Positions 134 to 57,300 of a DNA stretch of 64,000 nt are shown one piece after another. This DNA comes from Mytilus trossulus (lineage: Eukaryota): positions 20,832,001-20,896,000 of the forward strand of contig NC_086380.1 in NCBI RefSeq assembly GCF_036588685.1, given 5' to 3'. Position 1 is the stretch's first letter. Each line of letters begins with the position of its first letter. The translations under genes were made by a program, and so were the position numbers. A model generated the notes under the pieces. The model searched no databases. It was given only the letters and a program-made list of their open reading frames with translations, and had not been told where the DNA came from.

Positions 134-303
134 GTTTACGATTGATCAACTGTTGTATGAGAAGAAGCTGATTGTGGATATGTCCATGTCTATATGTTTG
201 GATGTGAACACAGACTGTCAGCACAACTTTGACATCTTGGTACAACAGAAATTTCCACAGCCTCTTTGTGACATGGACATGAGTGGATGGACACTCGATA
301 CAA
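134..303 (+). CDS. Module 0 (partial): exon C
   Basis: tag|GTTTACG...ACAA|gtatgt; [28 protein letters not shown]...FPQPLCDMD. Confidence 0.85.
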
Positions 304-9300: not shown

Positions 9301-12300
9301 GGTGTCAAGGGAGAGCCGAAAATTGAGTTCCTGAAATTTTCATCCCAAACGGGAATCGAAGCAGGAACCTTTGTGCTAGTAGTCTGATGCACTTACCACT
9401 ACACCACGGCTCTCGTTATTGGGTTGCTGCCCGTGAATCGGTAATTTTAAGGAAATTTTGCTGTTTTTGGTTATTATCTTGAATATTATTATAGATTAAG
9501 ATAAACTGTAAACAGCAATAATGTTCAGCAAAGTAAGATTTACAAATAAGTCAACATGACCGAAATGGCCAATTGACCCCTAAGGAGTTATTGTCCTTTA
9601 AAGTCAATTTTTAACAATTTTCATAAAATTTGTAAATTTTTATTAACATTTCCACTGATACTACTGGGCCAAGTTCATTATAGATAGAGATAATTGTAAG
9701 CAGCAAGACTGTTTAGTAAAGTAAGATTTAAAAACACATCACCATCAACAAGATACAATTTTGTCATGAATCCATCTGCTTCCTTTGTTTAATATTCACA
9801 TATACCAAGGTGAGCGACACAGGCTCTTTAGAGCCTCTAGTTTAAGTTATACCATTAGTGACTCATATTTATGTTACTGCATTAATCTTACACGTGTTAA
9901 ATTTTATAGTTTCTTGCTTGTTTTCAATTCTATTTATTTCAATGGAAATTAAATCTTTCCCCAGAATCAGTTAGGATTCCCCTATCCATTTAATTTTTCA
10001 GAAGTGTACTTGAAAAAACATTTACATTGTTGACCAACACAACTAAATGATTCTCTGTTTAATTTCAAATTTCTAAGTAATTTTAGTGGTTTTTAGTGGA
10101 GTTCATGTTGTTTCTTATTTATTATTTATAACTGTTGATGTAAATGTCCTTTATATAGATTAGACCGTTGGTTTTCCCGTTTGAATGGTTTTACACTAGT
10201 AATTTTGGGGCCCTTTATAGCTTGTTGTTCGGTGTGAGCCAAGGCTCCGTGTTGAAGGCCGTACTTTAACCTATAATGGTTTACTTTTTAAATTATTATT
10301 TGGATGGTGAGTTGTCTCATTGGCACTCACACCACATCTTCCTATATCTATTTGTTTTTTTGAGTCTTTGTTTACTCCTTGATTTCGATTGTTATTGTCT
10401 TTATTCTTACAACACTGATGGTTTTCACTGGTAACTATATATGATTGTGAATTTTTAAGTATGATTCTGCTTTTTTTTTTATTTTTGACAATTCTCTTTC
10501 AGTTTTATGGTGATTGATTTACAAGCTGAAAAGAAGTTCATTATTAGTATGAATGTCAGTGTCTGTTTAGAAGAAGGAGAAGCGTGCGACATAACCTTAG
10601 AAATTGTCAAGGATCTGTGCCTTCCAAAAATATTTTGCGACTGGAGCATCAATTTTAACAATTTCTCAACCTCCAATTTCTTGGCCCAGCAAGGACTTTC
10701 TCTCCAGAACCAATTGACTGACATTGTAGTTAAGCAGGTTTTAGAGAAACTTGGTATAGCTGAATATCTACAAGATCCACAGTGTGACATTAACAGTCCA
10801 ATGTACCAATCTCAGCCATCAGATTCTGTCGGTTGGAGAGATGGTAATATTATTTATATGTTTTGCTGTGTTAGAAAAGTACAATTAAGAGATTATACAC
10901 AAATGTAGGCTATACCGAAAAAAGGTAGTCGGAACATTTTTGTGTAGAAATGTCATTTTTGTACAATAATAGAAATTTTATGTTTAGTATTTTGTATATT
11001 AGATTAAAAACATGTTAAAAAATGTTTTCTTCACATCAACATCTATGTATGAGACTAAGACCAGGGTTTCCGCTGGCGGTCGCCATTTTCGCAATTTGCG
11101 AAAAAATAATAATTGTGGCGATTTAAATTCGTCATTGGCGAAAGAATTTGGCGAAAGAAATATATTAAACGATTTATTTTCAGCCATCTTGTTTATTTAC
11201 TTTTTTCGAGTTTCTCAGACTTTACCAATTAGACAATACTCGGAATTCACCTTGAACTTGTTAAGATATTTACAGAAAATCAATAATCAGCTGATTGCAT
11301 TCATAGCTATCGACATCAAAGGACTAATTTATAAAGGTGTTGATTGTTTGATATGACAAAATGATATGGTTAAATGGCTTCTGTCACATATCACAAAAGG
11401 GATTTATAAACCACTTTACGAAGCACGTGTTTGAAGCAAAATTTTTACGCTTCCTCTCCTTCTTTTAATGATAGTCAAGCAAAGAAAATTGTTGTTATGA
11501 CGAAAGATGTTCAATAGCAAGAAAGGTCTCTGATTTAAAACTTTATCATTTCACTTTTATATAGATCATTAATTTGAGTGGGTACTTTAAAATCGTTTCA
11601 GTTACACACGGGTTTCAAGCATATAGTTTTACTTTTAACTTATTTACGATGGTCTAGAAAAGAAAACTGTCGTTATGAAGAAATCTATTCAAAAGGTTGG
11701 CAAGAGAGTAATCCTTCAATGTAACGACTACACCTTACACGAGGGATCAATTCCAAGTGATAAGATGCTTCGTTTTGTTGTAAAAACCACTTCTTATTTA
11801 GGGGGGCTGGAAAAAAGGAAAATTTTAAAAGAAAAATATATTTGTGTTACTTGGCGAAAAAAATAATAAAGTGGCGAAATATATATTTATTTGGCGAAAG
11901 AGATGGCGAAAAAAATAATTGACCCAGGGGAAACCCTGACTAAGACATAATGTAGTAAAATGTCTTATTTGCTTAGTCTATTCGCTCATATCTAAAAATA
12001 AATGGGAAGCTTTCAAAGAAATCTAACAGAGCAATGTTTTATCAACATTTGAACCTTGTTATTTGATATATAACCACTATTTTGTTATTTGATTGTAACC
12101 ACTACCTTGTTATTTTGATATATAACCACTACATTCCTCATTTTAGAATGTCTAGGAGGATTAGTTAACCTTACAGCACTGACTCCATCATCTATAGCCA
12201 CACCTAAAGGATATATTGCATCACGCTGTACTTACATAGACTTCTGTTTATATATACCACTACTAAAGAAGTCTTTCCATGCTTACTTTGACCTCAATTG

Positions 12301-15300
12301 GTGTGAAAGGTCATTCAAGATTGGTATAGAAAAGCTTTTTATTGATTTGGACTTTCTGACCTACAACTGGGGTAAGTTTTAACAATACAAAATTCAAGCT
12401 TAAATTAAAGAAGTCTTGTGTGATTATTATACCCCTCCCTTTAACAAAAGGGGGGGGGGGGGGGCGTATACCGTTTTACCTCTGTCTGTCCTTTTCAAGG
12501 ATTTCTGAAATTTGGTTTCAGGGTTTATATAAGTCAACTATACCTTGTAATGTGTTTCAGCTTCATCAAGCAACAACTTCCTGTTTATCGAAATATTTCA
12601 ACGGGGGTATCATCAGTGAGAAGTAGCTCACAGTTTTACTTGTCTACTTCTACAATTTAAAAAGGAAACAATACATTTCTTTAAAATTGAGAATGGAAAT
12701 AGAAGAGAAAACAACCCACCAAAGAGTAAAAAAATCAGTTCATTGTGTAGTTTTATGTTGTATGACAATGTCATTGTGTAGTTTTATGTTGTATGACAAT
12801 GTCATTGTGTAGTTTTATGTTGTATGAAAATGTCATTGTGTAGTTTTATTTACAACATGCTGCTTAATTAAATAAAAAAATAATAAAAGAATAATTTTGT
12901 TTATTTTACAGGACAGAAAGATAGCAAAGATTTGTTAGATGCCTTGATATTTGAGTAAGTTTAACACATTGATAATAACTGATGTCCAATAAATATTGTT
13001 TGTGTGGTGAGCTGCTTAATATAATTTTTTTTCTGATTCTTGCTTCAATTTGACACTATCTGAAAAGGTAAAAAAATTATGTACTAGGTATATTATAACT
13101 GTTTTGTTTATAATGTACCAGAACAAGTGCTGTAAAAAGACCTGGCTTGAAAAAAGAAAAAAAAACAAAGTATGAACAGAAGAAGTTATGATAGAAGGAA
13201 ATATTTTATTCTTTTTTCCTAAAATTATGATATTGATCAATTTGTATTACAGTTTTCTTGTTGACTACAATGAAGTGGATGAGTATTTCCATGTAGACCT
13301 GAACATGAGCATGTACTTAGACAGAAGTGAACAGTATGTGACATTTGAACTCTTCAAGAGACAAGTTCTACCAATTCCTGCATGTGACTACGATACAAGT
13401 TATGCCGTACCAGGTAATTATGACGAGATTTTATAAATCAACAGAGGAGGAATGATAAAACTAAGAGATAAGACAGTTTTCCTTATTCTTACTCGATTTA
13501 ACCCTTTGCTGACTTGTTGATTATTTTTATTTAATCAACATGTGTTTTTTTAGATCTTAGTTCTTCATTGGTCAAAATTCCATTATGAAGTCAAATGATC
13601 TTGTCTTCCTTTGAAATTACTATTGTGACGTCATGAAAAAAGGTGGCCATGCCTGAGATGTCATAATTATTTTTTTGATAGATCATATATATTTTTTGCT
13701 AAAATTAACAGAGTGAGCCGCGTGGAAAATAGTCATATGAAATTGTAAATGAAGGTTTCAAAATTCAGAATGCCTGAAAGGAAAAATAAAGAATTTCATT
13801 TTTTTTTTAAAACTTTGGACTTTTTAGTTACTTATATTAATTCTCTTACCAATTTAGACTAGAATTAAAAATTTGTTTAAGTCAAAGTCAAGAAATAAAA
13901 TATTGATATAAAATCCAAAATCTAGATTATCATCAACACACACACAAAGAACAAACATTAATTATTATCAGTCAGGGGCGTTACTTAAACAAGTTATTTT
14001 TTTTAATTACTTAAATCAGTAATTTTTTATTTTAAAAATAATAAAATTACTTAATAGAGTTATTTTAATTTTCAATAGAAACATAGACTAAATGTAGTTT
14101 TCATGATTTTAAACAACATTTTATATCATAAAATAAAGAATTTATCAGATTTGAAAGGAGTATAGAGATAAAGGGTTACTTTGAAAATAATGACAAAAAT
14201 ATTACTTGAATGAGTTATTTTAAACATTTTTGAAAAAAATAGCAATTACACTCATCTGAGGCACATATGTATTTGATTTAGGTTACAAATTATAAATAAA
14301 TTCAGGTCTTAATTAATTTACAAGTATCTATCTATTTATATCAGTCTACTTTCAAGATTTTAGAGGAAAATGATAATTTAATAGTCCCAAGAGACCAATC
14401 TTTGACCCAGAAGCGTCGGTATGAAAGATAAGTGCGTCGGAAAGTTAATTAGTGTTTGTGAAGAATTAGTTTTTATATATCAAGGGAAAAATAACCAGAT
14501 AACTGTGAAAATTATTTAAAGCTAGTAAAATCTGTATTCTTGGACACCTATAAAAATATTATTTATAAAAATAACTTATATAAGTTATATTTAAATAAGC
14601 CTCGTTTTCAACATTACTTGTATAGGTAATTTTAATTGTTACTTGTTTAAGTAATGCCCCTGACTGATTATAAACAATTACATAACAATACAGAACATAA
14701 CAAATTTTTAAAATAAATTTGTCAAAAAAATATATATTTAAAGAGATACGCATTATATATAAAATCTTGTTATTTTCTTTAACATTTCCCCCCCTCCTAT
14801 CTATTTGACTGATGCGAAGGTTCAGTTTTAAATACTCAATACAATTTATATAATATGATATAAAATAACTTAATTTGGTGAACCTCTGGCCTGACGGTCA
14901 TAAAACTTTCGAGCATGAATTTTGTACTTAGACTCGAAAAATCAACCAATCAAATTGCTAGATTTCATGTTTTGAGCATGATTTTTGTGCTCAGAGCACT
15001 ACGTTTTAGCCTTCAAGGCCTGGACATGTACTGATATGATAATATTCCAACAAATAATAATCTTTATACTTTTAGGTTTCAACTTAAACAGTTGGTATGC
15101 TGAAGAAGATGTCAATACTGAAGGTGTCAATACTTTCAATACTTATCAGCACATACCCCTAGGATCACCACTGGAACCTGCTAAGACATCAAGTTTACCA
15201 TTACTGACCCCTGTAAAGGCATCAAGTTTACTGGAAGACCTGGAGATTGGTGAAATGATGTCTCCCTCACAATGTCAACCTTCAGGCATCAACTACAGTC

Positions 15301-18300
15301 CATCAGTCGGGGGATGGAAAAATGGTAAATAACTATTACTCCCTGTTTGATATACATGTATACTGTGGATTCATTTTTTATTTGTGGTGCATCAAGTGAT
15401 TTTATAGATAAAGGTAAACCACAAATTTAAGTGTTCAATGAAATACAAATTGTCAATAGTAAAATTGAGAATTGAAATGGGGAATGTGTCAAAGAGACAA
15501 CAACCCAACCATATAACAGACAACAGCAGAAGGTCACCAACAGGAAGAAATTCCGGCACCTGGAGGCGTCCTTCATCTGGCCTCTAAACAAATAGGCTTG
15601 CCTGAAAATATTGGTAAAACCACGAAATCAAATATCTGCAAAAATACAAATTTGCCTCAATCCACAGAATTGGTACCCACAAAAATAAATAAATCCATAG
15701 TAGCTGGAAATAAAAAAAGTAAGAAAATATAAAGGGGCATAGTCAATATTATAAAGAAACATAATGACCAAATAAAAGGATAAAAAAAACATTCTACAAA
15801 GAAAGCAAACAAAGCAAAACAAACCTTAAAAAATGGCGGGGACCGGTGGTGCACATGTAGTACCCATTACCTATCAGCCATGTTTAAAAGGTAAACAAAA
15901 AAGTGAATAATTATTAATAGAATGGAAAAACTATTTAGTATGTAAATCTTCAATATATTGCATTAGTAAAGCAGAATGTCAGCTTTGCAATTTCAGTTTG
16001 TAATTTGAAATAAAAAAAGAAAAATTATAAATTAGAACAGATTTATTAATATATTCCTGATTTTGTATATGTTTACAGCGTGTCCACTTGATGTTCCCAT
16101 GGCAACACTCCATCCATCAACGGTAGGATCTATTGGTGAAGTGTGTACAGCTGTTGATTTCTGTTCTGATGTTGATTTCCTGGGACGTCCATTCCACACA
16201 TACATTGACCTAGATCCATGTACAAACATTGGCAAAATTGGCATTGAACGATTTAATCTAAAGTTGAATTTGACTGATGCAACCATTTTTGGTAATTACC
16301 TTTTTAAATGGCATTCCTCATAAAAATAAACATATCTTTGTAATTACTGTAGAAAGATTAGGGATAATTATTAATAATAATAACTTACTGAGAGGGAGTA
16401 TTTGACCAGCTGTTGACTGTAGACTTACAATTTATTATGTAACTTACATATATTTTACCACAAGTTTGTTTACAAACCATAAAAAAAATTGTATAAAAAC
16501 TTTCATTTCATTTCTGGTGTTTTCTTTCTTGTTAAAAATATTTGTCAAGCATACTAATTTAATATTTTGTATAAATTGCAAAAATAAATCATTTTAATTT
16601 AAAAATAAAAAAATGCTGATAACGAAAATTTTGCTTTTTGTTGCAGGTGAGGAGAAAAAGTTTAATTTGAAAGGAGTTGTAAAGTTGACGTAAGTAGAAA
16701 TCCAATTTAATCATCAACTTTTTCAACAAAAAAGGAATAAACTAGTATTTTTTTTAATCTATTTGTACAAAAATGTTGATATTTACACCATTTTTAGAAA
16801 TATTACATTTCCTATTATGACTTTACAAGTTATAGCTATTTAGAAATCAGTCCTGCTTGAACTTTTGATGCCATACAACAATCATTTTTTCATTGTGGCG
16901 TCAGATATTTTGTATTATGACTTCAAAATTTTATGGGAACCTTTATGATGTCCGGTAATGGAGAACGATAAGGTGTATATTGATCGTTGATTTATCATCA
17001 TTACGATATTTTTGTCTTACAGATACAAAATAGAAACATTCCCAGTTGAGCGTCAATACAGAGTAAATCTTAAGATCCAGATATGTTTCAACAGTACCTC
17101 ACTATGTGAGATAGAAATGGATGCCTTCACTGATGCTATGATACCATGGAGACAATGTGCCTGGGATCTGCCATATTCAACAGCAGGTGAATAGACCTAA
17201 TTAAATGTGCCTTTGATTTACCAAGGAAGTCTTTTGACAAAAAATATCTTTAAACTAACCTTTTTGCTAGTTTTATGCACAAATAGGTCGATGTTTTGAA
17301 AGACTATCATACTGTTTTAAAACAACTTGATCAACAAAATATTCTTACTTTTTACAGTTGCAGATAAAAAAAATAAGTTTTTTTGTTACGGCTTTTGGTA
17401 CCAAAAAGTTATCATTCTTTAGACGACATATTTTATGGTAGTCAATACACAAAATAGCATTGTAATTTATACTTGATTGTCACTACACATATTAAATATT
17501 GAATAATTGTTATAATTTCAGGCTTTTCATTGGCTAGTCACCTCACCAGTATTGGCAAAACATCTGGACAGACATTCTCTTCTGAGGAAAAGACCGATTT
17601 GTTTAACTTACTTGGATTAAATTCCTATATTTTGGGAACACCTTGCACAGTGGCTGATTATTCACCAATCAGTGCAGAGAGATGGCAGAAAGGTAATGTA
17701 TTACTGTTTTTGTCTTAAGAGTTATTTCCCCTTTCCTCTGAATGGTTGACCTCTTTGATCATAGTTCATAATGCTTATGTTAAAGATTTTCTTTAAAAAA
17801 TTTTTTTTTTGTCAAAGCCCATACTGCATATTCGGCTATTAAAGGCTGATTGTTTACTTTAAATGAACTCCTTTCTAAGGATCACCATGACCTTCACCCA
17901 TCATCGCACTAAGATTGTGCAGACATTAGTTAATGAAGATTTGTTCAACTCTAATTTTATACTTGTACTTTTAACAGATTGTGCAGCAGACGTCACCTTG
18001 CCAACCCTCCCTGCCAATGCAGTGTGTAACATCCATGATAAATGTACTGCTGTAGATTGTTGTATGAACTCTGACTTCCTACAACAAGGTTTCCATTCCT
18101 TTGTTGAACTGGATCCCTGTAACCACAAACTAAACTTTGGTATAGAAAGGGTATCAGAAACAGTAGATCTCAATGGATATGCATTTGGTAAGTTACTTAT
18201 TTTATGTAGGTCAAATTGAAGAAGTTGCTAGTTAATGATGTTAGTTTCCAATGTTTTTATTTAATTTGTTACTTTTTACTTGATTTGTTGATTTTATGTC

Positions 18301-21300
18301 AATTTGTTGTATGATGCTATTTAATCACTATTATTTATTCAAAAATATGTATGATGTAAGAATTTTAAAGGATGGCAACCGTGTCTTGATAAATCTTGTT
18401 AAATTGTAGGAGTTGAACAGACGAAGACCTTGATGAATGTTGTCAGACTCACGTAAGTAGACCGAAATCTTGGAAATAAGGCATGAGAAATTGAAGAAAA
18501 ATATCATAGCAAAATCAATAAAATTTTTAAAATAAATTAAAAATTTTAAATGTTGAATTGATTTGATGGAACAAATCATAAATGACTTACTGTGGATTCA
18601 TTATTATTCGTTGGATACCAATTTTCGTGGAATTCGTGGGATCAGTTCAACCACGAAATTAAATGTTCAACGAATGACAAATTTTCTTATGGCTTGTATG
18701 CAGACTTCGGCAAAACCATGAAATCAAATATCCACGAACATGTAAGTTTTCCACAATCCACGAAAATTGGTACCCATAAAAATAAATGAATCCACAGTAA
18801 TTGAAAGAAGACATATGTACAGTACTAAGGAAGATAACAAAATATATTTCCCTTCTTGAAACATTGAGTCCTGTCATCAAAATAACCATATTACTTAATA
18901 AAAATACAAGGATAAAAAATTGATATGATATTGTATGATATTTCAGATATACTATCATAAACCTTCAGTCAGCAGGAAGATTCCAGCTGGATATGACAAT
19001 TAAGATATGTTTTGAAACATCAGGGTCATGTGACTTTGAAATGACCGTGTTCAGTGGTACACAGCTTCCTAAACAGTATTGTTTCACTGGTTCAACTTTC
19101 CTTGATTCAGGTATGTTGATATAATTGAAAAAGTCTTGCTTTAAATGGTCTAACTTGCTTTATTCTCCGTTGTGTTGGAACTTATGCTGTTTGGTTTGTG
19201 TGACCTATTTGTTTTCACGATTCTGCTACCAGATTTGTTTGCAGGGAGACTTTGATTTTCACTTTTTACACCTCAGTAATACAGTACCTGTTAAATAGAA
19301 ATAGTCATTTTTTTGGAAATTTTGCAGTTTTGAGTTTATATGTATTATTTAGTAAGATCTACAGTTAGGTCAATTTTATAATGCCTGAATATGCAGGTGA
19401 GTTATATCAGGCTCTTGTCATTTTTGCCAAACCAATTCTGTTGCAATTTGGCAATAATGAGAAAAACTTCAAATATTTCTGAATTTACTGTTTTCAAAAT
19501 GTGATAAGAAAGAAGATGATGTTGGTGTACATTAATTTATTGCAATTTTCATTTGCATAAATTTGCATATTTTATGTTGCAGCATTTTCACTGGACAACT
19601 TTTTAATGGCTGAGAATGAAGCTAAAGTTGATCCATTACCTTCAAAGGCAACAACCAAACTGTTACAAGATACTGGAATCAGTGACTACCTTCAAGTAAC
19701 CCCATGTGATCACTCTGTGTCACCTTTCACCACAGCCAATGGCAGACTTAATGATGGTAAGAACATGGTGTTCTTTAGCCTATAATTGTTTACTTATACA
19801 AATTGTTACTTTGATGGAGAGTTGTCTCATTGGCACTCATACTACATCTTCTTATATATTCTTACAGTTCACATGATTTTACCTGAATATTTGTTTATAT
19901 TTTCAATTGTTCTTCAAATTTCGACTTCAAGTTTCCTTGCCTGGTTTAAATATGTGTGAATTCAATTCTCCATATGAAAGTATGTAAATCTTGTAAAGTA
20001 ATCCAGAAAATTTGTACATATTTGTTTTTTTAGAATGTGGTAAACTTGAAGACTCCATTACTCTACCAGCAGACGTATCATTGAACATCCAATCAGATTG
20101 CACATCAGTTACCATGTGTTCTAACATTGGGTATATTGATAAGAAAATCCAGTCCAAAGTTAAAATTGATCCCTGTACATATGAAATCACTCTTGGCATT
20201 GAAACAATGGATGCTACTGTATCCTTGTTACATTTCCAGTGGGGGAAACCTCAATCCTTTGCCTTACAAGGAGGACTTAGAATGGAGTAAGTTTAATCTA
20301 GTGCAAAATAAAATATATATAATGCTTCAAGAATATTTATTTATTGAAACTTTTATTTGATCCTTGCCTCTGACAATAACTGAGACTTAGAAGGGTAATA
20401 TTGGTGATGGCAGCATACAGAATTGATAAACGTGATAATAAGGTGACACATATCTTGGTGACTATTGTTTTTGTGGATTTTTTAATCTACAAGATGAAAT
20501 TCAACAAAGCCTAATATTACTGTAAAACATACATGTCTCTGATATAAACAGATATTTGGGGCAAAAAAAATGTAGAAGCTTCAGCTCTACAGTTTTAGTT
20601 TTATCCTATTTTTGTGGTACTAATTTTTCTTTTTTGTTCTATTTTCCAGCTATGTGATCCATGATTTAACCAGTGAAGGAATGTACCTGGTATCTGTTGA
20701 CATTGGTCTGTGTATGGAGACTTCAGACAGAGACAGTTGTGATGTTAGGCATACAGTATTAGATAACGTCAAACTACCAAAGAAGTCCTGTAACTGGAAC
20801 AATGGATTTGCATTCTCTGGCAATCCAAGTAAGAAAAGTCAAAGTTATGTTCAAAATGTTTCTTTTCATTGCTATTCAATAACAAATGTTTTTTTTTTAA
20901 TTATGATTTTTTTCAAACATAATGGAGATAAGATAAAGATTTCTTTATGATCTTTCATCTGAAATATGACTATTAGTGTTTATCAGTAGAATGCAGTGCC
21001 AGTATTGCTTGTATAAAGACATTTGTATTTATAAACTCTTGTGGTAAATGCATGTGGAATTTAAACCAGAGTTCCAATGAAGATTAAATTTTGGCCAAAC
21101 AGAAAGAACTATTATATATTTTTTTCTCTTAAATTATTCAAATTTTATGTTTAACTTTTTAGACACATATTCTTCTTTTTTTGAAGAAATTTGACTACGT
21201 TTTTCATTATTTTAGGTTTTGATTTGACAACCTGGCTATCAACTAACAGTTATACAGACTCAAATCCTTTGTCAGAACTTGTTGTCGTTGAACTTAAAAG

Positions 21301-24300
21301 ATTCTTACAGTTTGACGATTATATACAGCCTAGTCAATGTGTGTCATCTGTTGCACCTTATACACCGGTCAACTCTGAAGGCTGGGCTATTAGTTCAGGT
21401 AAGAAATATACCAACAATTTCTTTTCATAAATAAAAAAAACTAGCCAATACTTGCCATCGTCTCCATCTTATAAACTAGGCAACTTTGAAAACTTGACTC
21501 TTTAGTTCAGATGAGAAATATTTCAAATCACTCACTGTCTAAATAAAAAATCATGGACAAAAGTATATTGATAAAATTGGTAGTGCAGGCATTGTTTGTT
21601 CATAATTCTACATACATTGATTTTCAAAAATGTCTTTTGTGAGAGAACTACTTTGTCTTTCTCTAATTAAACAGTCATGTATTTTCTTAATAGGATGTCG
21701 GAATGCACCAACACTCACCACACTACCTGGTTCTGGTATTGTATGTAACCTTGGTGACAGCTGTACTAAGATTGACTGCTGTGTTGACATTGCCAAGTTA
21801 GATACGACCTTCAGAGTGTATGCTGACCTTGATGTGTGTAGTAAGGAGTTTACAGTTGGTGTAGAGAATTTCAACAGGACTGTATCCCTGAATAGTTTCC
21901 AGTATGCACAAGAAGATACTTTCTCTTTTGGAGGACTTGTTAATATTAAGTAAGAACAATATTTACATTGAATTTAAGATTTCATTTCATCTTCCTAAAA
22001 AAGATTATTTTGTTAAACTGTCATTTTGTATATTTTAAGAATTATTTTAAATGATGATGAAATTCAAATGTTACTACCGAAACCACTTAAGACCAAGTGA
22101 AATTATTTTTATAAGCTGCAAATATTTTATAGCTCAAATTTTTAGCAAAAAGGGTTAAAAATATCAAAAATTTATCAATGCATACTTAAATACTGAAAGG
22201 GATAAAGACAGTATTTAAAAAAAACCTTTTTTTTAAAGGATAGATTTACTTTTATATGATGCTTTACTCAATGACTGGGCTTACATTGTAACCTTCCTTT
22301 AATCCAAAATGCAGTATGTTTCAAATTATTTTAACCTGTTTTCCAGATATAAAGTAGTGAACTACCAGAGTGAGAGAGTGTTTGTAGTCAATATGGACAT
22401 TGAAGTATGCTATTCTGCTGCTGGACCATGTTCAGTACAGCACAAGATACTTACCAATGTCAAGTTACCCAAATCTTCATGTAACTACAGCCAGCCATAT
22501 GCCATTCCTGGTAAGAATATTAAAGAATTGTGATTAAGTTAAATAAAATGAAAATAAACTTAACGACTTTTCCATGAAAAAATGTCTGGAATGTTAGAAC
22601 AACTTCAAGTATTTCTTTCTGTGGGTGTTAAGGGTGGACACATGAATATGATTCTGTTACAAATAAAATTAAAATTGTGGGAAATGGGGTATAAAACAGG
22701 GTCTTCCAACCCTCTCATACATTTTCCCTAGAATACCCCTAATTTAGTAATATTTTGGTTAAAGATAACAGACTCACTATATTTATGTCCATTAGGGGTC
22801 AGCTGAAGCATGTCTCTAGGTGCAGGATTTTCTCACTGTATTGAAGACCAATTGGTGGCCTTTGGCTGTTTCTGCTCTTTGGATGGGTTGTTGTTTCTTT
22901 GACACACTCCCCATTTCTAATCTTTATTTTATTGAATATTTATATGCATATTCCTAAATCTCAATTGTAGTACTCATACTAATATATTGATTTATTTTAC
23001 AGATTTCTCATTGGTGTCTTACATGAGTGAGTTAGAAGTTGACACAAATGTCAATCAGCTACCAAGTTGGGCTGTTGACTTACTGATGGAAGAATTAGGA
23101 ATAGCAGGTTTCCAAAAAGAACCTCAGTGTGAATTGTCAAGCTACTCTGGAGCTCTAGCAAATGGATGGGATTCAACAGGTTAGGTTTATTTATCACCAA
23201 AGTTATCTCTGGCTATACCTTAAGATGAGAAATAATTCTGCTACAAATTATAATTATCTTTGAAGTTAATTGACAGACTTCTTGTTACAGCTAATTTTCT
23301 AAAGCATGTAGAGCAAGACTTAAGTTAGCTTGCTTGATTTTTTTTTATATTGTATAATCATTAGGATAACACCTAATTAAATTCAAATATTATATATACA
23401 GGTAAAACTATGCCTATATATATTGTTTAAAGATGTCAATCTTATTTACAAAGCTTGTATAAACAATAATACAAGCAAAGCAAGCAAGCCAACCAAAGTT
23501 TTGCTTTACATGCATTAGGAAATTAGTGTAATATGAAAACATTAATAAAACTATTTAATAAATGCATACTTTACTCAAGAAAAATAAACCACAAAAAGTT
23601 TGGTGTGTAACCCAAAGAAAAATATAAGGGCATGTAATAGCATGATGAAAGACCCATTTGTGGCCTTTTGGACGTTTTTCTGCTTTTGGTCAGGTTAATG
23701 TCTCTGACACATTTCCCATTTCCATTCTAAATTTCAATTTTATAATTTAAAGCAAATACTAGAGTCATAATAATGTGTCTAATACAAGGTAGGATGACAG
23801 ACATTCCTGCTGGCAGTTACCTTTCGAATTGTGAACTAGCACTTTAAAAATTTGAATCTGCATGCATGTCAGTCTTGTTGAAAGATTGGTTCCTATTCAT
23901 ATCACATTTTTACATGGGTCTAATATGCATGACCTAGTTGCCACAAGATGTTAGTCATTAATTAATCTAATCATCAACATATTAATTTGTCTTAAAGTAC
24001 ATTTGCAACCTATTATTTTTCAGCTTGCGGAGAACTTATAACACTACCACAGTTACCAGCCTATACACGATGCAGGTTACCAAGTTACTGTACTGGTGCC
24101 CAGTGCTGTTCAAACATTGGTTATCTTGGGAGAAAGTTGGAAGCCTTTGTTTTGGTGGATCCATGTAGCTACTCTGTCAGCATTGGACTGGAGAAAAGAA
24201 ATATCAATGTTACATTACTGGAATTTACACAAGGCAGTTGGCAGATGGTCACTTTAGGCAATCTACTCAGACTTCAGTAAGTTTTTTGTGATGATATACA

Positions 24301-45300: not shown

Positions 45301-48300
45301 CAGTGCATAGAAGTGAAATATGTCCCTACTTAGACACCTTGCGCAGCCCAAAGACAACATTTTATGCAGACCATATTTTTGCTTTACCTTTGACAGCAAA
45401 GAACATTTCATTTCCTTGTCTGTGCTTTCATCAGTCCCTTGATTTTGTATAAGGTTAAAGTATGTTTGTAGTTTACAATGATGCTGGTCACTTACTGTAC
45501 ATGTTCATAATGATGTCAAGTTTTAAAATGATGTCAAACTAAAGTTTTATGTATAGTTCTACCATTAGTTTCTGATTTGTATTTGTAGTTTCTCTGTGGA
45601 TGATCTGGTGAATAGTGGAATGTATGTGGTCAACATGACGGTCAGCATCTGTTGGAGTAGTGGTCAAGATTGTCAGTTTATGTCACAAGTTTTCAAGAAT
45701 ACATTGTTGCCTAAACGCACATGTGATACACAGATAGACTTTACTCAGTCAGGTATATAATCTGTTTTATTTATGGTGGTACCTAACACTACAGGGAGAT
45801 AACTCTGTAAAATCAGCTAAATGTTTTAATTACGTTGTGTTTTGAGGGAATATTAAGCTTCTCAATGATCAAAATAAGTGTTTGTCAAACTGCTATATAA
45901 GCAGTGTATTTTTTTGATAAAACGGGTGGTTCAAATTTTTTGAAATTTTAACATTTTTGTCAAAGGGTCAAAGTAAATACTTTGTAAAATTTTTATGAAA
46001 ATTAAACGAGCCAAATTAATTTTAGTGAAGGTGTTGGGTACCACCTTAATGGTATGTTCAATGTAAAAATGTATTTTGCTTAACAAGAAAACAGTAGAAT
46101 CTTTATTTTCTGACACAAATAGAGCAATATTTTCTATTTGTAAGAGTTTTTACTGGCTAAATAGAGTAAAAGTATGCAGGTAAATCCAAATTGATTATAA
46201 TAAATAAGATTAGTATCATGGTTAACTGTGAGTAATTATAAAGAAGACATTTGGGAACTTTTTTCGATACAGTTTGAATGTTTAACATTAACATACTCAA
46301 TGAATAATATTCCTGAACTTCTTTCTTTACCTATCAGATGTGAACACATCCATATCCTTTGTTTTTCTATTGCATTGAAATAATTGTGTTTTTATCTTGT
46401 TCTTTCAGACTTTAGTTATACCAACTGGCTCACCACTACAGGGTATACAGATGCCACACCTCTTACAGGTGATGCACTAGATGACCTTGAAGAAGTCCTT
46501 GACATTGTCAAGTTCTATCAACCTACTGGTTATACTGTAGTTAATGTCAGTAGTAACGGGTGGAATAATGGTAAGTCCCTTCACATGTTTCCATAGCAAT
46601 ATAACACAGTATGACCTTGAAGAAGTCCTTGACATTACCAATTTTAATGAACCTACTGGTTATACTGTAGTTAATGTCAGTAGTAATGGCTGGAATAATG
46701 GTAAGTCCCTTCACATGTTTCCATAGCAATTTAACACAGTATGACCCTGAAGAAGTCATTGACATTGCCAAGTTCTATCAACCTACTGGTTACACTGTAG
46801 TTAATGTCAGTAGTAACGGGTGGAATAATGGTAAGTCCCTTCACATGTCTCCATAGCAATATGACACAGTATATCAGAGTAAGTTCCCCTGAAACAAATT
46901 AATCATCAGGTTTCAAATGTATCAAGAGCTGCCATTTCACACTATTTATTTGACTTTTTTGTAACAACTTTGTTGTAAGTTTTCTTACTTAAAGATCATA
47001 CACAGGGGTGGATCAACCCATTTTTGAAAAGGGGTTTACCCCCACAGATAAAAAAAGGTGTAGTTTCAACTATATGTCCTCATTCAAATGTATTGATGGT
47101 AAAAAAAAGGGGGAGTTCTAACCCCTGGAACTGCCACTGATATAATGTTATAAAAAATGTTTAAATCCCACGTGTTATTTTCAGAATGTGTCTTGGGCAT
47201 GGTAGAGCTACCAGACATTTCTCTTGCTGCTAATTGTACTCTCCAACCCCATTGTACAGCTGTAGACTGTAGTATTTACTCACCAAGACTTGGCAGGAGT
47301 TTCCATGCTGCTGTAGATATTGACCCCTGTCATGCTCGTATGGTGGTAAAGATAGAGAAAATGAACTTCAATGTGGGACTACTGGAAAAACAATATGGTA
47401 AAAATATCAAGCAAAAAGTAAAAGCACAAAAATACTGAACTCTCAGGTTTAAAATTCTCTAATCAAATGGCAAAATCAAATGACAAAACACATATGCAAC
47501 GAATGTCTACTGGGAGAAATTCAAAATTAAAGAATTTTTTTAAAGATTAATCTTAACAGTGCTTCTTTGCCATCTTATAAATATAACCTTATAAATGTAT
47601 TCATTTTGTTTTGAGTCCTTCACACCTTTTTTCAATGATGTCATTTTAATTTCTGAAATTGTATAAAGTATTGTCTTTTAGATTAGATTTACAACGTAAA
47701 GATACTTTTAAGTTTGTTTAGCTTTGAACCTTTAGTTTATAACTTGTACTGTTTGTATTAAGAATTAATAAAAGATTAAAAAAATGAAGCAAACAATATA
47801 AACACAACTTTTACTGAAGCATAAAAGATATTTGCGTAGCTGCTTATTTTATAAGTATAGTGTATAAAAGATGTAGTAAACTTTTGATAGGATACAGTTT
47901 TGATATAATCTTCCTGTTTCATTTTAGGTGATTTGTGGCAAGTTTGGTTGAAAGGAGTTATAAGACTAGAGTAAGTAGTTCTTTTTGTTCCCATGTTGTA
48001 ATTATGTCCAAATGTATTTGATTCGATACCTGGTCAAAGACCAAATAGATTAACTGGCTAATATGATATTAAAAACCAGAATTTTTTCTTATTGAAATGT
48101 TTTCCATATCTCATTTTTGTCACTTATATACTTTCTATATCTTTTGAAAGATGATTAGATATACTAAAGACTTGATTTTTTTTGTATATAAATCATTGGA
48201 TTAAGTGCTGTTCTGTTAAAGAAAATCAAATGTATAATTTATCTTTTTGAACATTTATAGCTTCACCGTCAATAACTTACTGACTGAGAACCTGTACCTA

Positions 48301-51300
48301 GTAAACATGAACTTGAGCATATGTTTCGAGTCGTCTGGAGCATGTGAAGTTGGACCTGTAAACATTCTTGTCAACACTTTACTTCACAAGAAACCATGTG
48401 ACTTCTCCAGTGACTTTGCAGTTACAGGTATGTCGATGCTAGTAGCCTCAGTGTGGTGTACATAATGTATTTGTCAATCTTGTTCTTGATTTATTATCAA
48501 AGGGAGATAATAAGTTTAAAAGTGTTTTTTTTTTTTAACTTTAATTTGCAATGTACAACTAATTTTTACAAGGTAATTGTTTTTTTTTAGCAATAAGTTT
48601 TAAGTTGTTTTTTTATTTAATTTACAAAGTACAACTTATTTTTAAACGGTGATTTAGTTTTTTTTTAGCAATAAGTTTAAAGTTGTTTTTTATTTAATTT
48701 ACAATGTACAACTAATTTTTACAAGGTAATTTGTTTTTTTTAGCAATAAGTTTTAAGTTGTTTTTTATTTAATTTACAATGTACAACTAATTTTTACAAT
48801 GTAATTTGTTTTTTTAGCAATAAGTTTTAAGTTGTATTTTATTTAATTAACAATGTACAACCAATTTTTACAAGGTAATTTAGTGTTTTTTTTACATAAA
48901 CACATATATTTTTAATGAGGTTATTCTTCATAAAGTGTGGATATCATATAGAATAAGAAGTTGCAGTCATTATATTAATTATTATGGGTAGAGAACAAGG
49001 GAGTGAGCAGCACATGTCATTCTTTCATCAAGTACAAAATTATTAGCTGTATGTGGTTAATTCCATTTATACTTTTATAGGGTTTTCTTTGGAAGCAATG
49101 AAACAGACTTACCATCTATCAGAAGCTGGGGCACTACCTAGTTACTTTGTACAGCAGGTTTTGAATACAGCCAGCGTGTCACAGTATCTTCTGGAGCCCT
49201 CATGTAACAGACTGTCTTCACCATTTGGTACAACTTACGATGGATGGATGAAAGGTAAGGGAAATATTTCAATAATTGTTAAGGCAAGTATTAGATATTT
49301 CTTCATGCAATTTTTTTTTCAATAGGACAAATTAAAGTTTGTTTCTTTGTTTTTCCTTAATATTGCAAAGAGAATTAGTCTTGAAGTAAAAAATAAAAAT
49401 CTAAATGATAAAAAAATAAAAATCAGAAAAAAGGAGATAAAAGGTTGAAATTTAATTTTCTAAACCAGAAGTATGGATTTTTAGTAATTTTTAATTGATT
49501 AAAAACATCCTAAACATGGAATAGCCAACCAATGGGTAACATTATTTTGACTTTTGGTGTACCGTTATGTTTAAGAAAATTACCCATAATCCTTTAGATT
49601 GTTAAGCAGAAAATCGATACAATGAGACTGGATTGTTAATTCTGCTTTATATTATTAATAGGTTGTTCTCAGTCCTTGACCCTGGAATATATCAAACCAA
49701 CAGAGACCACCTGTTTCACGTTACCAGATTGTACAGGGTTCCAGTGCTGTGTAGATGCAGCGGTCATTGGAAGGTCGTTCTTATACAAAATATCTGTTGA
49801 TGCTTGTAAAAACAAACTGACTGTCGCCATTGAAGGTCTAGAATACGAACAGAATCTCTTAACTTACAAATTTGGTGAGTTCAAATATTGAAAAGTCTAT
49901 GATTGAAAATAGAATTTATGACTTTATGTATAATTTGAATATTAGATTATCAAAAAGTTTCTGTTAATTGTAGTGTTTATTATTAACTTTCCATTCATAC
50001 AATTTTGCACAAACAAGAGATACTTTTTTTTAAATCAACTATCCTATTGTTTACTTCTATGAATGCATGATCTTTTATCAGTTACATAAACCAAATGATA
50101 TACCCTGTATACATATATGTTGTTTCTTGGTACATTTCAGGTACTCAAGATAAGTTCTACGTAAATGGTATCTTCAAAATGGAGTAAGTATTATTTTTAG
50201 AAGAAACCAAGAAAATTTGATGTCACAAATTCAAACAATTATTTACTGAGAATGACTATTTCACTAGTGAGGAGAACAATTTTTTCACAAGCAGTTAGCA
50301 TGTAGAATAGTGAAAATTTTGAAAAATAACATGTCAAATTAATACTTTCTCATTAGAAACATTTGAAGTAATATCAGGAACTTTTCTGTTCTTCAAAAAT
50401 CAGTAATCTGTATAAATATTATTGATACACAATTCTGAAATTTTCTTGGAACAGATAAATTAGATATGAAAAAAATTAATAAAGTGGTTACAAATTGACA
50501 TTTATATTATCATGAGGATACTTTATGGTTTGTTTACATTACAGCTACATGATAGAGGAGCTACCAATAGATGGGTCTTACTTGTTGAGTGTCACACTGA
50601 GTGTATGTTTAGAGTCCAATGCTGATTGTGCTGTACAGAGAGTAGTAGCTAGTAGTCTTAAGATAGACAAACCTACATGTACATCTACTGGACAATTTGC
50701 AATTCCAGGTAATACTGAAAATTCAACAATTATTACAATGTTTTTATTATTGAGAAAAATGTGACAGGGTTATAATTGCAATTATTTAAACTAGCATTTC
50801 GACATTTTTTATCTGAAAAAACTTGATTTTTTTCAATTGCATTTTGGTCTAAAATGACAAAATTGCAATAATATCTGAATTTACAATAATATAAATATAA
50901 AGAATTAAGGTCAGAAGGGATTGCAACATATGTAGACAACAGTTACTCATTCTTTATAAGATTTGAAGTTCACTTATATCAGATGTGCATTAGTGAATTT
51001 TCTATTGTCTTTGTGAATAAAAGCTTATTTTAAATTCAAAAACCCTGGATGTTCCTCTCTGATAATACCAATGGATCACAATGGATGATGACCATCTCAT
51101 TTTATTTTTTTATACATATGACAATTATATTTTTAGGATTTTCCCTGACTGAGTGGAAGTCTAGTTTGGGATTAAGTTCCACAGGCTATCTACCAGAATA
51201 TGCTGTTACTCTTCTGATGAGTGATCTCAACATTGCCAAGTACAAGAAAGAACCTCAGTGTACCTTAGCATCGCCAGGCTGGCAAGCAGGAGGTCAGTAA

Positions 51301-54300
51301 CATTAACCTTCTGATGAAAAACTGCAATTTGAAATTTGAATTCTTATGTTTCTGCTGCATGTTTTTGTCTCATTAGCATCAATATCATTTTGTTCTTTAC
51401 ATTCTCAAAATAAATCTTGCCTAAATTATTGGAGAAAGTTCTTGTGCTGTGATACAAAATAGAAAATATGAAAGGTATACGGTTTACTGTACAGATTTGA
51501 ATTGCTGACTTCAAATCAATGGTAGAGAATATTAACTCTAATTTTAAAAATGTAATTATAGGTTGTCCGTTGACTATCGACAAGCCAATGCTCCATGACA
51601 ATGTTACCTGTCAAGTGACCAGTAGTTGTACTGGTGTTACGTGCTGTGTGTATACAAAAGTACTGAACCGTAACATTGATGTGAACCTCCTTCTGGACCC
51701 ATGTGAACAAAGTTTGTCTCTCTCCATTGATTCTCTGGTGCACAATAGAAGTTTGTACGACTTCACCTTTGGTAAGTCATTTTTATGCTTTAATATTAAG
51801 ATAAGAAAACTGAAGTGAAGTGAAATTTATATGAAGGTAAACTAGAAAATTAAATTACTCAAAATGAGTTTCATAACCTATCAATATTTTAACCTATTTT
51901 GACTATTAACAATTCTCTACTGATTTATATTAACAAATTTAAATTCTAGATTTTTTTAATTTCGTTATAATAGTACATCCTTAAACAATGTATATAGTCT
52001 ATATGATATTTTTGTCTATTACAGGAGGTTTACAACAGTTTTACATGGAAAATGTTGTTAGAGTGGAGTGAGTATCCAAAACCAAAATAACATTTTTTTT
52101 ATAACCAGAGTGACTGACATTTGTTAAAATAAGCAGTTTTATTTTCAAAAGTTTATTATAAAATAATTGTAAAAGAAGTACTTATTTTAAATTTACTTGG
52201 ATCTTAGATTGGGTATAATCTTTTTTTTTTAAGATATTTTAGATTTATATACTTTTTGATTGTTCAACATTAGTTAATTTCCTTGTAAAGATATTAAAAC
52301 ATGTGTATTTCATGATAAGATATGTGTAATTTTAATATTTATTCTAGCTATGTGATCTACGATCTTACCAGCGAGTACCAATACCTTGTTGACATGAATA
52401 TCAGTGTTTGCTACGAGACATTAGCGCCATGTGAATTAGAAACAATGGTGTTCCATAGTTCTGTTTTGCATAAGAAGCCATGTCAGTGGACAACAGGCTT
52501 CAGAGACCCAAGTAAGTTGGTAACCTATACCCCGATTTTTAGGAACTGTCAAATTGGTCTTTTGCCAATTTAGTTATATGTTAGATCTGACAAATGAGAA
52601 AGCAACTTATTGATGCTCAAAACTAAAAGATTAGCATACATCTTCAACAATAGAAGGGTTTATATACAAGAAGTATTTTTCACTTAAGCTTAACAAATGT
52701 TTTTTTCATAATTTTTAATGCCACTAAATACATTTTTCTTATATTTCAAGTGCCAAAAGTAGTTCCAAACATGTGTTTTAATTTTTATGAAAAAAATGGT
52801 TATGTAACCACCTAGTGTACAATTTGAAATGAGAAAATGATCGAAAATATTTGATTACTTTAATAATGTTTATTTTACAGATTTCTCTGAGTCTGAATGG
52901 AGAAATGAGATGAACATTACATCTGATGCTCAGCTGTCCCCAGTAGACATAGCCAAACTAACAGAGGCTCTTTACGTGGGACCTTACCAGGCGGACATAC
53001 CTTGTCAGGGATACAATTCACCATACAAAGGAGCCATCAATGGATGGAAAGATGGTAGGTCTCATGCAAAAAAGGAAATTTTATTTTGTAAAAAAAAATC
53101 ATGCTTGTCAGACAATTCTTTATTTTTTTTAAAAACACATAACCTTGAAAATATGAAGGTTATAATATTTCACTGCCATGCTAACTAAATAAAACATTGA
53201 CCTAAACATGTTCTTGTCAGATGGAACCTTGACTGATTCTGCTTGATAACAGTAGACTAGGCTATATGATAATGGTTTGATATCTTAACATTTCATGACA
53301 TACTATATCTACGTTACAGAATGCTCAGCTACTAACTTGGAGAACTTACCATCGTCTATGATGAAGTGTTACATACCTGCCACTTGTAGTTTTATCAAAT
53401 GTTGCCATGAAGTTGGTCTGCTGGGTACACCAATGGAGACAGAGCTGAAGATTGACTCGTGTAACTTTGAAATGTCAGTCAGGATTGAAAAACTGGAGTT
53501 CAAAGTTCCCTTCCATGACTACCAGTGGGGTAAGTTCTAGTCAGGGATATTTAGAATTGATTTTAAGATTTTTATAATTTGAAATTGTCTTGGACTTATT
53601 CTTTCTATTTTCCTCACTTTTTCTTGCAATATTACATATACTTTCAGCCTTATTCATTTCAAAAAGATATAAGAAGATGTGGTATGAGTGCCAATGAGAA
53701 AACCATTCAAACAGGAAAACCACTGTCTAATCTAGATAAAAACGAGAAACATTTTAAATCACATCAACAATAAAATCTTTTTTTTATTATTTTAATTATG
53801 TGAATATCAGTTTTTGCTGTATAGCTGATACCAACTAACTAACATTGTCTGTTTCTATTTACAGGAGTTTTACAGAGTATGGACCTATTTGGATTGTTGA
53901 AAATGGAGTAAGTATTACACTCATTTATATCAAAGGATAAAATGTTCTATTGTTAATTCCCACTTAGAGGCATTATGTTTTTCAGTCTGAGTGTTCGTCC
54001 GGATTTCACAGTCCACTGAACATAGCAACCAGCATTCATGTACTATGGACATATTTTTGTTTAAATACGACCTGTATGTGTTGATTGCAATTCTTAAATG
54101 TAAATGTTATTGTTAAAAAAACACTGTGGTCAGAGATTGGGAACTATAATGATCACAATAACCTCTGAATTTATTATAATTATATGGATTGTTTATATTT
54201 GATATTTAAGTAGACTACAGTAATTTAAATGAAAGAGGTAAATATCTTTGAGAAAGCAACTTGACTGCTCAAAATCCATTAGAATAATTACTTCTTTCAT

Positions 54301-57300
54301 GATTCTGTTTGAATAGACCAAAATCAAACAAATGTAAAGTAAAAGGAACCAATATTGAATATTTTTTCTCCCTACAGCTTTGTCATAGAGAATCTATATG
54401 AGTCCAGACAGTATTTAGTTTCTATGAATCTGACATTATCATATGAATCAACTGGAAATGTAACAGCAGCCACCATACTGATGGACAAAGCCATTCTATC
54501 TAAGGAGCAATGTGATTGGAGCTCAGACTTCCATATAACTGGTTAGTATTTATATTGTTTATCTAAGGAGCAATGTGATTGGAGCTCAGATTTCCATACA
54601 TCTTGTTAGTACTTAAATGTTTATAAATATCATGGTTTAATTTTACAAATAGTGACTTGCATAGAGAGTTTTCTCATTGGCACTCATACCACATCTTCTT
54701 GTATCTAGCAACAAAATTAGATGAATATTGATTATTTGAAAACTTTCATATTATGAAATATTTGATAAATTTGTATGTACTTTGTTTTATGTCACTTTTT
54801 TTTTTAGAATATGAAGGGAATAATCAAACAATGCCTTAAAATATGTGAGGCTACTTTTCCTTCTTTGTACCAAGTACAAATTTATTTGATATCCATTTTA
54901 TGTATGTTTTTTGTTTAAACTGTTAATTTCAAATGTTAACTATCCTTACTTTTCATTATGTCACTATGATCAATTATGATGATTTTAAATTAAAATATTT
55001 TTTGTTGAATATTTCAGGTTTTTCCCTGTACACATATCTGTTAAACAGGAACCATGGCCCTACTGAAACCATGACACCAAACTTGTTACTACAGTTTATG
55101 GAAGATACCAACTTGGCACCATTCATGCAGGAGGAAATGTGTAACAGAACTGGTGCCCTGTATAACAATCAATCATGGACACAAGGTATGAAACGAGGCT
55201 TATCTTATTTGATAGCTGTCAGCTGTTGGCTGTTAAAAACCTGAAATTTGTTATCTCCTTCTGCAGCAAAAATTTCAATTGGAGATTTTCAGTAGGACCT
55301 AACGTTCTTTTATCTTATTTTTGCAATAATTTATTATTGTTTAAAAAGTTGCAATAAACATGTAATTTATAAACCATACCATTTAAAAGATGTGAAATTT
55401 GTTGTTAAATGGCACCTGTTACTCAAATGTTGCAATTTACCATGATGAAGTGTCGCAAATTTCAAAAAAGCAGTCAGGTTTTTAATGTATTCTTTCCTTT
55501 TATAGATTGTGCTGCCAACCTAACATTGCCAACTTTATCAGACAAAGTTAATGGTCACATAACTACAATGTGTACAGGAGTTCAAGCTTGTATACAGAAT
55601 GAAGTGATTCAGAGGTCATTTGAATTCTCCCTTCTACTGGATCCCTGTTCTAACAGGCTCAGTATCAGTATAGAGAGAGCTAGATACAACAGAACACTGG
55701 GTGATTTTGAATATGGTAAGTTATATTTGAAATGGATAATTAGTTAGATTTGAATAAATTGATGATTAGAAATATGTATATAAATAAACTCATCATAGAT
55801 ACCAGGACTAAATTGATTGTATACGCCAGACGCGCGTTTCGTCTACAAAAGACTCCTCAGTGAAGCTTGAATCCAAAAAAAGTTAAAAAGGCCAAATAAA
55901 GTACGAATAATAAATTGTCTTTTTCTATCAAGGTTTATATTATCCGACAGATGTTTTGTAATAGATACAGAAAAAACTGTGTAAACCAAGCCCTGCATGA
56001 AATAAAAAACCTGTCTTTACTGAACCTTTGTGGGTGGGGAAGGGGGATATGCAGAAAAATTATTAAAATGACTAAATTTTTATGTTTCTTTTTTTTATTT
56101 GTAGGAGAAGACCATTACTACAATTTACAAGGAATTATTCGTCTGAAGTAAGTACATGATATTTTGATGAATAAAATTAAGAGAAACAATTAAAATCTGT
56201 TAGACATTACCATTCAAATTGTTCTGTTGAAAAATGGGAAGGGAATGAAAGATTAAAGATAATAAAATGAATGATAAACAATTTTGGTTTATCATAATGA
56301 GACCAAAGACCTTAAACCCAGCATTGATTTTTGACACCAAAAAAAACGAATCAATCAATGTCGACATATTATTTCTATTTCAGATATAATATTGAAGATC
56401 TGTACACAGAGCGTTATTATCTGTTAAATGTAGTTGCCTATTTTTGTTATGAGACATCAGGCGTTGTCTGTACACTGGAGAACAGCTTTACAATCTTGGA
56501 GAACACTAAGTTACCTAAAAGAGTCTGTAGCTATGATCAAGGATTCAAAACAACAGGTATGGATGCATCATTTTCAACTATTCTTATTATCTCTTGTCTA
56601 ATAGAAAGGATTAGGGGAATCAATAAATGACACCAAATTGGTATGTGCACATCAAAAAACAAAACAAAAGCAAAGGAACAGTGCTTTGTATTTGTATTCT
56701 TTTTTTCAGTATTTTTTTCAATTTATTAATAAGGCATTTGATGTCAATTTTATGACATGTGGTGCTAATGTTGTATCTTAAAGTTCTTGGAAAAATATAT
56801 GGATTGTATAAGTGGAGAAAGCACTCAGGGATCAACAAAATACTTTATTTTAGTATACTTTTAAGTTACAACAATGAAGGGCAAAAGATCTGCAACCTTT
56901 TTTTTGTAAAGTTTCCAATCTAAACTACATGTGATCAGTTTGTTTGATTGGTTGATTTCTATTTTATTTTTCAGGTTTTTCTAAGACCCAGTGGTATGCT
57001 GACAATGGAATAGCAGACGGACAAGTTCTGCCTGACTGGGCGGCATCATCATTCCTGGATGACCTTCACATTGCTGCCTATTTACAGACAGATCAGTGTG
57101 GACAACAGACTGATGTACAATATACAGCTGGATGGAATCTAGGTGAGGGTTTCAATTTAAATCTTTTTTTATATTGATCAAAAATTTTGAATTCAGAAAA
57201 AGGTATCCTTCTTTAAGTTAAAAATTTAAGAACTCAAAAGACCAACAAACTATATTTAATATTGATGCATTTTACAGGTTGTACAAAGACTGTCAGTTTA

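Follow-up and report, generated by a model that had tools for sequence, protein, structure and literature searches.

Here we have analysed 64,000 nucleotides (nt) of Mytilus trossulus DNA (RefSeq assembly GCF_036588685.1, contig NC_086380.1, positions 20,832,001 to 20,896,000), hereafter the window, to whose positions and plus strand all coordinates below refer. This AT-rich, eukaryotic sequence holds one gene, on the plus strand, whose 95 exons (134..63941), rebuilt from splice signals and reading frames and every one bounded by AG/GT ends, join into a stop-free frame of 5,383 codons that includes 255 cysteines. The gene is intron-rich and giant; the window covers its middle, and it is open at both window ends. 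It encodes 27 tandem modules (m1 to m27) of about 198 amino acids and ten cysteines each, in the exon order D-A-B-C, with a B exon of 43 nt, which in 12 modules forms a single exon with A; the window ends inside m27, leaving 26 complete modules. The modules are strongly diverged, with pairwise identities of 17-39% (median 28%). Ahead of m1 stands exon C of the preceding module (134..303), 45 of whose 50 residues are identical to residues 2263-2312 of P0177, a 5,285-residue Mytilus galloprovincialis protein in the same 90% cluster as the public M. trossulus model P0001. P0001 itself is 100% identical to m9-m15 and most of m8, splice joins included.

With the cysteines numbered 1 to 10 along D-A-B-C and given ten columns in the module alignment, the 26 complete modules lose them solely as pairs, with eight paired losses and no single one. 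Cys3 and Cys5 are replaced together in four modules: by Gly and Phe in m4 (exon A, 12147..12371; codons at 12209 and 12242) and again in m5 (exon A, 16079..16291; 16126 and 16159), by Leu and Met in m7 (fused exon AB, 20034..20286; 20081 and 20114), and by Gly and Ala in m23 (exon A, 55506..55715; 55553 and 55586). Cys1 and Cys6 are lost in two modules. In m11, exon D (27232..27411) has no Cys1, a Val at 27354 taking its place in the alignment, and exon AB (27966..28224) carries Ala for Cys6 (28055); in m19, exon D (46409..46570) is shortened in the region of Cys1, leaving a gap, and exon A (47185..47397) carries Ser for Cys6 (47271). Cys8 and Cys9 are replaced by Tyr and Gln in m4 (exon C, 13253..13413; 13314 and 13332) and by Ser and Val in m22 (exon C, 54378..54541; 54439 and 54460), while Cys2, Cys4, Cys7 and Cys10 are invariant in all 26. 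A preliminary description of this DNA had listed exactly these losses, together with the four invariant positions and the lack of any unpaired loss in functional exons, and our alignment reproduces it on each count.

When the columns were shuffled one by one among the 26 modules, none of 200,000 trials showed perfect pairing, and the analytic chance of such an outcome is about 2e-9. The modules that lost Cys3/5 or Cys1/6 (m4, m5, m7, m23, m11 and m19) sit on separate tree branches and their sister modules retain the lost pair, so these losses are independent, whereas the tree places the Cys8/9 losses of m4 and m22 as older and common to homologous modules. That inheritance from older modules, and the identical G/F replacement in the neighbours m4 and m5, would suit an artefactual origin of the pattern, whether from the alignment, from common descent or from a faulty assembly. 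However, m4 and m5 are 25% identical and belong to different clades in which the sister modules keep Cys3 and Cys5, and the orthologues in other Mytilus records show the same losses. Indeed, close orthologues have identical losses wherever the site is covered, and the losses are therefore not sequencing errors. Refuted by the shuffle test, the tree and the orthologue comparison, an artefact retains a probability close to nil.

To these paralogous modules we added a broader sample. A profile of the 27 A exons matched 773 proteins at E<=0.001, with named relatives in bivalves, abalone, the nemertean Lineus, the flatworm Macrostomum and the amphioxus Branchiostoma. Full homologue modules numbered 316 and were reduced to 214, from 40 proteins, by dropping P0001, together with every module that shares 65% identity or more with one of the window, and thinning the remainder at 70% identity; P0063, an unrelated simple-repeat protein, was left out before counting. 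Ten cysteines are present in 182 of the 214 and an even number in 207. Curated by eye, these modules hold 29 paired losses (Cys1-6, 2; Cys2-4, 1; Cys3-5, 6; Cys7-10, 9; Cys8-9, 11), such that each of the three pairs proposed in the preliminary description recurs independently of the window. One amphioxus module retains just Cys1, 2, 4 and 6 of the ten, and another lacks exactly those four. An odd number of losses occurs in five homologue modules, as compared to 49 +/- 4 expected by chance (minimum of 33 in 20,000 shuffles). Furthermore, in mean-field covariation over 273 modules the five best cysteine-cysteine pairs are 3-5, 7-10, 8-9, 1-6 and 2-4, at ranks 2, 3, 5, 9 and 25 of 19,110 pairs, and a non-cysteine pair beside Cys1 and Cys6 (R42-D90 in m1) takes rank 6; the three pairs first proposed thus also stand among the five best by coevolution.

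Taken together, co-loss and covariation lead us to propose, with considerable confidence, that each D-A-B-C unit is closed by five disulfides, Cys1-6, 2-4, 3-5, 7-10 and 8-9. The preliminary description had anticipated five bonds, three of them assignable from sequence; those three are supported, and the two it had left unassigned can now be put forward as 7-10 and 2-4. The delicate part is the group formed by Cys1, 2, 4 and 6, which might instead be wired 1-2 with 4-6 or 1-4 with 2-6, or might use Cys1 to bond a neighbouring module. Cys2 and Cys4 are almost never lost, and covariation restricted to the homologues puts 4-6 slightly over 2-4 and 1-6, both of which would be compatible with such a rewiring. 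On the other hand, m11, m19 and the homologue module P0022_732 lack Cys1 and Cys6 and no other cysteine, and the same co-loss recurs in divergent N-terminal modules of P0008 and P0035/P0165. No module among those of the window and the 214 homologues loses only 1+2, 4+6, 1+4 or 2+6, and the D piece is confidently placed in the single-module structural model described below (predicted local distance difference test, pLDDT, 86-96). The direct 1+6 co-losses settle the group, with 2-4 following by elimination and one co-loss, and we regard any rewiring as improbable.

Several observations nevertheless weigh against a strict version of this map. Module m3 carries an unpaired extra cysteine (TGC at 10618), the only one of the window, in the fused exon C3+D4 (10503..10843); the position is Tyr in two orthologues, and the preliminary description had overlooked it. 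Unpaired gains are likewise found in 2 of the 214 homologue modules, and 5 of the 34 loss events there are single, so the pairing is strong, not absolute: single losses do exist, and the 29 paired losses prevail over them. Without the window modules, covariation upholds 3-5, 7-10 and 8-9 and cannot order the Cys1/2/4/6 group (4-6, 2-4 and 1-6 at ranks 17, 20 and 21). Cys2-4, resting on one co-loss plus elimination, is the weakest pair of the map. Separately, three homologue modules (P0006_837, P0013_1866 and P0025_730) have twelve cysteines, the extra ones gained as pairs on neighbouring strands.

The predicted fold of a module fits the proposed map. An AlphaFold2 model (48 alignment rows) of P0062, a record that comprises a single module and shares 88% identity with m1, has a mean pLDDT of 93.1 and a predicted template modelling score (pTM) of 0.87 and shows, in D-A-B-C register, two short helices from exon D followed by seven main strands, suggesting a beta-rich domain with a helical cap. 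In this model Cys3 and Cys5/6 lie on neighbouring strands and Cys8 and Cys9 flank one hairpin loop, a placement in agreement with the bonds suggested above. Pfam scans of modules, exons and P0062 returned no family for the module, and no Pfam family was common to two or more of the 27 exon-A sequences; the exon-A profile had no match among PDB sequences (best E of 0.83), and Foldseek found none for the module at E<=0.001 in PDB or BFVD, a result that does not prove the fold new. The best VIA structural match, the N-terminal domain of FAIM (PDB 3mx7; Z of 6.8, root-mean-square deviation (rmsd) of 3.4, 88 aligned), is only 9% identical, has a Z typical of common beta arrangements and covers only model residues 82-186. 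The nearest named ESM Atlas cluster, both by features (0.84) and among the structural rows (template modelling score of 0.41-0.48 by query), is DUF4773 (PF15998), a secreted cysteine-rich beta domain; the match is below the Atlas bar, and the likeness is a lead only. Pfam gave no DUF4773 match to any module or exon, with none at E<=10 in any of the 27 exon-A sequences and none at E<=1 in P0062, and in the accessible portions of PMC12064177 and PMC11431876 the family is a mere list entry. We set aside a further Atlas cluster (0.91) that bears the label Nucleocytoviricota, as the viral fold search did not support it; the phylum is known for 3 of its 59 members.

What lies upstream of the window can be predicted from the orthologue P0177, a gene model that shares 79-96% identity with m1 and m4-m18 and extends upstream of them. 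At about residues 2460-2520, against window positions 3243-7901, exons D-A-B of m1 run into exon C of m3 in this protein, an in-register lack of two modules that reflects either copy-number variation or an annotation skip. P0177 starts with a hydrophobic leader and a head resembling the large lipid transfer (LLT) module, and continues past furin-type sites into a short beta segment and long amphipathic helices. An M23-like domain comes next, followed by two divergent SAP-bearing modules and then the repeats. A structural model of the head gave MTP, lipovitellin, vitellogenin and apoB as top matches (Foldseek E of 3e-17 against MTP; VIA Z of 18.1 and rmsd of 7.4 over 461 aligned residues against lipovitellin), and Vitellogenin_N passes the Pfam cut-off in P0008, P0016 and P0165. 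Sequence searches of the head against PDB returned HEAT-like, M23 and SAP chains only and no lipovitellin, and an Atlas feature search of a partial head returned HEAT repeats; the LLT assignment is made because of the fold search and Pfam, which together render membership of the LLT superfamily highly likely. The predicted gene model P0177 is continuous from head into m1 and m4-m18, and P0008, P0016 and P0165 have the same order. Hydrophobic leaders, judged by eye, are present in P0177, P0008, P0016, P0011 and P0165, and R-x-K/R-R sites occur at matching positions in seven of the seven proteins that cover the head. Counted together with 2,262 residues from upstream, the window would encode part of a predicted protein of at least about 7,600 amino acids whose 3' end is still open.

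Two further domains accompany the head. SAP domains lie between Cys1 and Cys2 of the first two modules (about residues 1300-1345 and 1560-1600 of P0177) and in the same place in P0004, P0006, P0008, P0011, P0016, P0034 and P0165, and these divergent SAP-bearing modules show the same paired losses. Upstream of the modules, homologues give weak Pfam and PDB profile matches to an M23 or LECT2-like domain. Active M23 metallopeptidases carry the zinc motifs HxxxD and HxH. Both are intact in only two of eight sequences (P0008 and P0016) and degenerate in the other six; in P0177, Val and Ser replace the first His of each motif, which does not fit an active metallopeptidase.

SAP is a nuclear DNA-binding motif, and its passing or coming near the Pfam cut-off in several homologues invites a quite different account, in which the cysteines bind a metal such as zinc in an intracellular repeat protein with a nuclear role and are lost in pairs as half-sites. 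The losses, however, form five separate two-residue sets, several of them far apart in sequence; His is not among the 16 replacements seen in the window; and the homologues begin with hydrophobic, signal-like leaders (by eye) followed by the LLT fold. With even cysteine counts prevailing across the homologue modules as well, we consider metal binding very improbable. Paired conservation of cysteines, a hallmark of disulfide-bonded extracellular domains, is instead what the modules display.

We therefore return to disulfide-locked secreted modules with fixed-pair loss, more likely than not acting as a spacer arm behind an LLT head, as the likely best explanation of the whole. Tempering it are three points: the head is outside the window, and its connection to the repeats comes from predicted gene models; the head model is moderately confident (pLDDT of 64.5, pTM of 0.43, residues 534-670 unresolved); and there is no enrichment of sequons (49, with 42 expected). 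In the head model, pLDDT falls below 50 in the beta segment that follows the helical domain. Under this explanation the protein would be secreted, and each module would fold alone, locked by its five disulfides. Loss of one partner would leave a free thiol, selected against in the secretory pathway, and the partner cysteine would soon be replaced too, with the rare single-loss modules as intermediates. Of the bonds, Cys3-5 and Cys8-9 would each likely close a beta-hairpin and be dispensable; Cys1-6 likely holds the helical cap from exon D against the sheet, and the C-terminal end is likely tied back by Cys7-10. At more than about 7,600 residues, the complete protein would likely be cut at the conserved furin-type sites.

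As for function, we lean slightly towards a spacer role, in which the module array would form a long arm trailing the lipid-transfer head. A possible but less favoured role is that of binding domains, an array acting by avidity on glycans, lipids or microbes and not as a passive arm; beta-rich disulfide domains often bind ligands, and each module position keeps its identity across bivalves even as the modules have diverged from one another. Against this stand the failure of any lectin or other family to recur among the exon-A sequences and a module count that differs widely between gene models, reaching up to about 30 ten-cysteine modules. A binding role would leave the disulfide map unchanged. 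More speculative still, and doubtful, is that these proteins form an undescribed ancient bilaterian LLT branch, a furin-processed secreted giant serving as a trap scaffold in mucus or hemolymph. If so, the SAP domains in the Cys1-Cys2 loops of the first two modules might capture extracellular DNA and the M23-like domain might bind the bacterial wall, with some 30 modules, all of a novel fold locked by disulfides, forming the arm that separates these from the lipid-carrying head.

The same design is found in other molluscs and in amphioxus. In three homologues the array gives way, at a further basic site of the furin type, to a conserved C-terminal region that all three have (P0012, abalone, about residues 2440-3553; P0163, freshwater mussel, about 3340-6862; P0022, amphioxus, about 2900-5183). 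Helices there precede an amphipathic beta segment rich in glycine, after which come repeats that, by eye, are presumably PAN-like and FN3-like. The distant paralogues P0004 and P0009 keep the module order, P0009 with two VWA domains, and P0002, a second record from M. trossulus that lies on another contig, shares 88-96% identity with P0001 over m7-m13.

Within the window, seven exons have partial tandem copies across a splice site (3355-3613, 5982-6294, 38911-39381, 44063-44352, 46481-46872, 54497-54624 and 7272-7339, with periods of 52, 81, 122, 151, 130, 63 and 36). Among them, the first part of exon D16 recurs in three truncated copies of 122 nt (38911..39284), each with its own acceptor; the P0001 model runs into these copies and ends there, and using their acceptors would stop the reading frame, as at the end of P0001. 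A partial copy of exon A18, upstream of it (44084..44218), has Phe for Cys3 and keeps Cys5; likely non-functional, it offers an internal contrast to the paired rule, with Cys3 lost singly, in one case only. Exon D5 (15076-15324) is 25 codons longer than in the orthologues P0177 and P0175 owing to two in-frame inserts, one of which includes a 15-nt tandem repeat (15105-15134). Two sets of dispersed intronic repeats (15460-15543, 28881-28964 and 43023-43106; 38078-38304, 42671-42897 and 44669-44895) are probably mobile-element fragments.

Public annotation splits this gene into fragments and thereby conceals a protein predicted to exceed 7,600 residues and to begin with an LLT head. The five-bond map and the module boundaries would allow expression of one correctly folded module, and they define a domain family with no Pfam entry or clear solved relative. 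In full-text searches of the main texts of freely available papers we found neither the module nor its lipid-transfer-protein architecture; proteome tables may contain such proteins under accession numbers. The paired-loss principle is not new: disulfides have been assigned from correlated cysteine mutations before (PMC3548674, PMC4498770), including in ZP modules (PMC7456536). As far as the accessible parts of those studies go, the logic is the same, with bonded cysteines kept or lost together, but here a single gene supplies its own alignment in the form of 27 paralogous modules.

Comparison with the large lipid transfer proteins (LLTPs) is similarly two-sided. Like them, the orthologue P0177 has, outside the window, an N-terminal LLT module of beta-barrel and alpha-helical parts, a signal-like leader and furin-type sites. 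According to the accessible text of PMC10799875, vitellogenins and apolipoproteins are defined by DUF1943, DUF1081 or VWD after the LLT module; none of these domains appeared in Pfam scans of P0005, P0008, P0011, P0016, P0035 and P0165. Unlike vitellogenin, apolipophorin and apoB, the proteins described here continue instead into a short beta segment and long amphipathic helices, beyond which lie an M23-like domain, the SAP inserts and the ten-cysteine modules, suggesting a protein whose head is LLTP-like yet which falls outside the vitellogenin, apolipoprotein and MTP classes.

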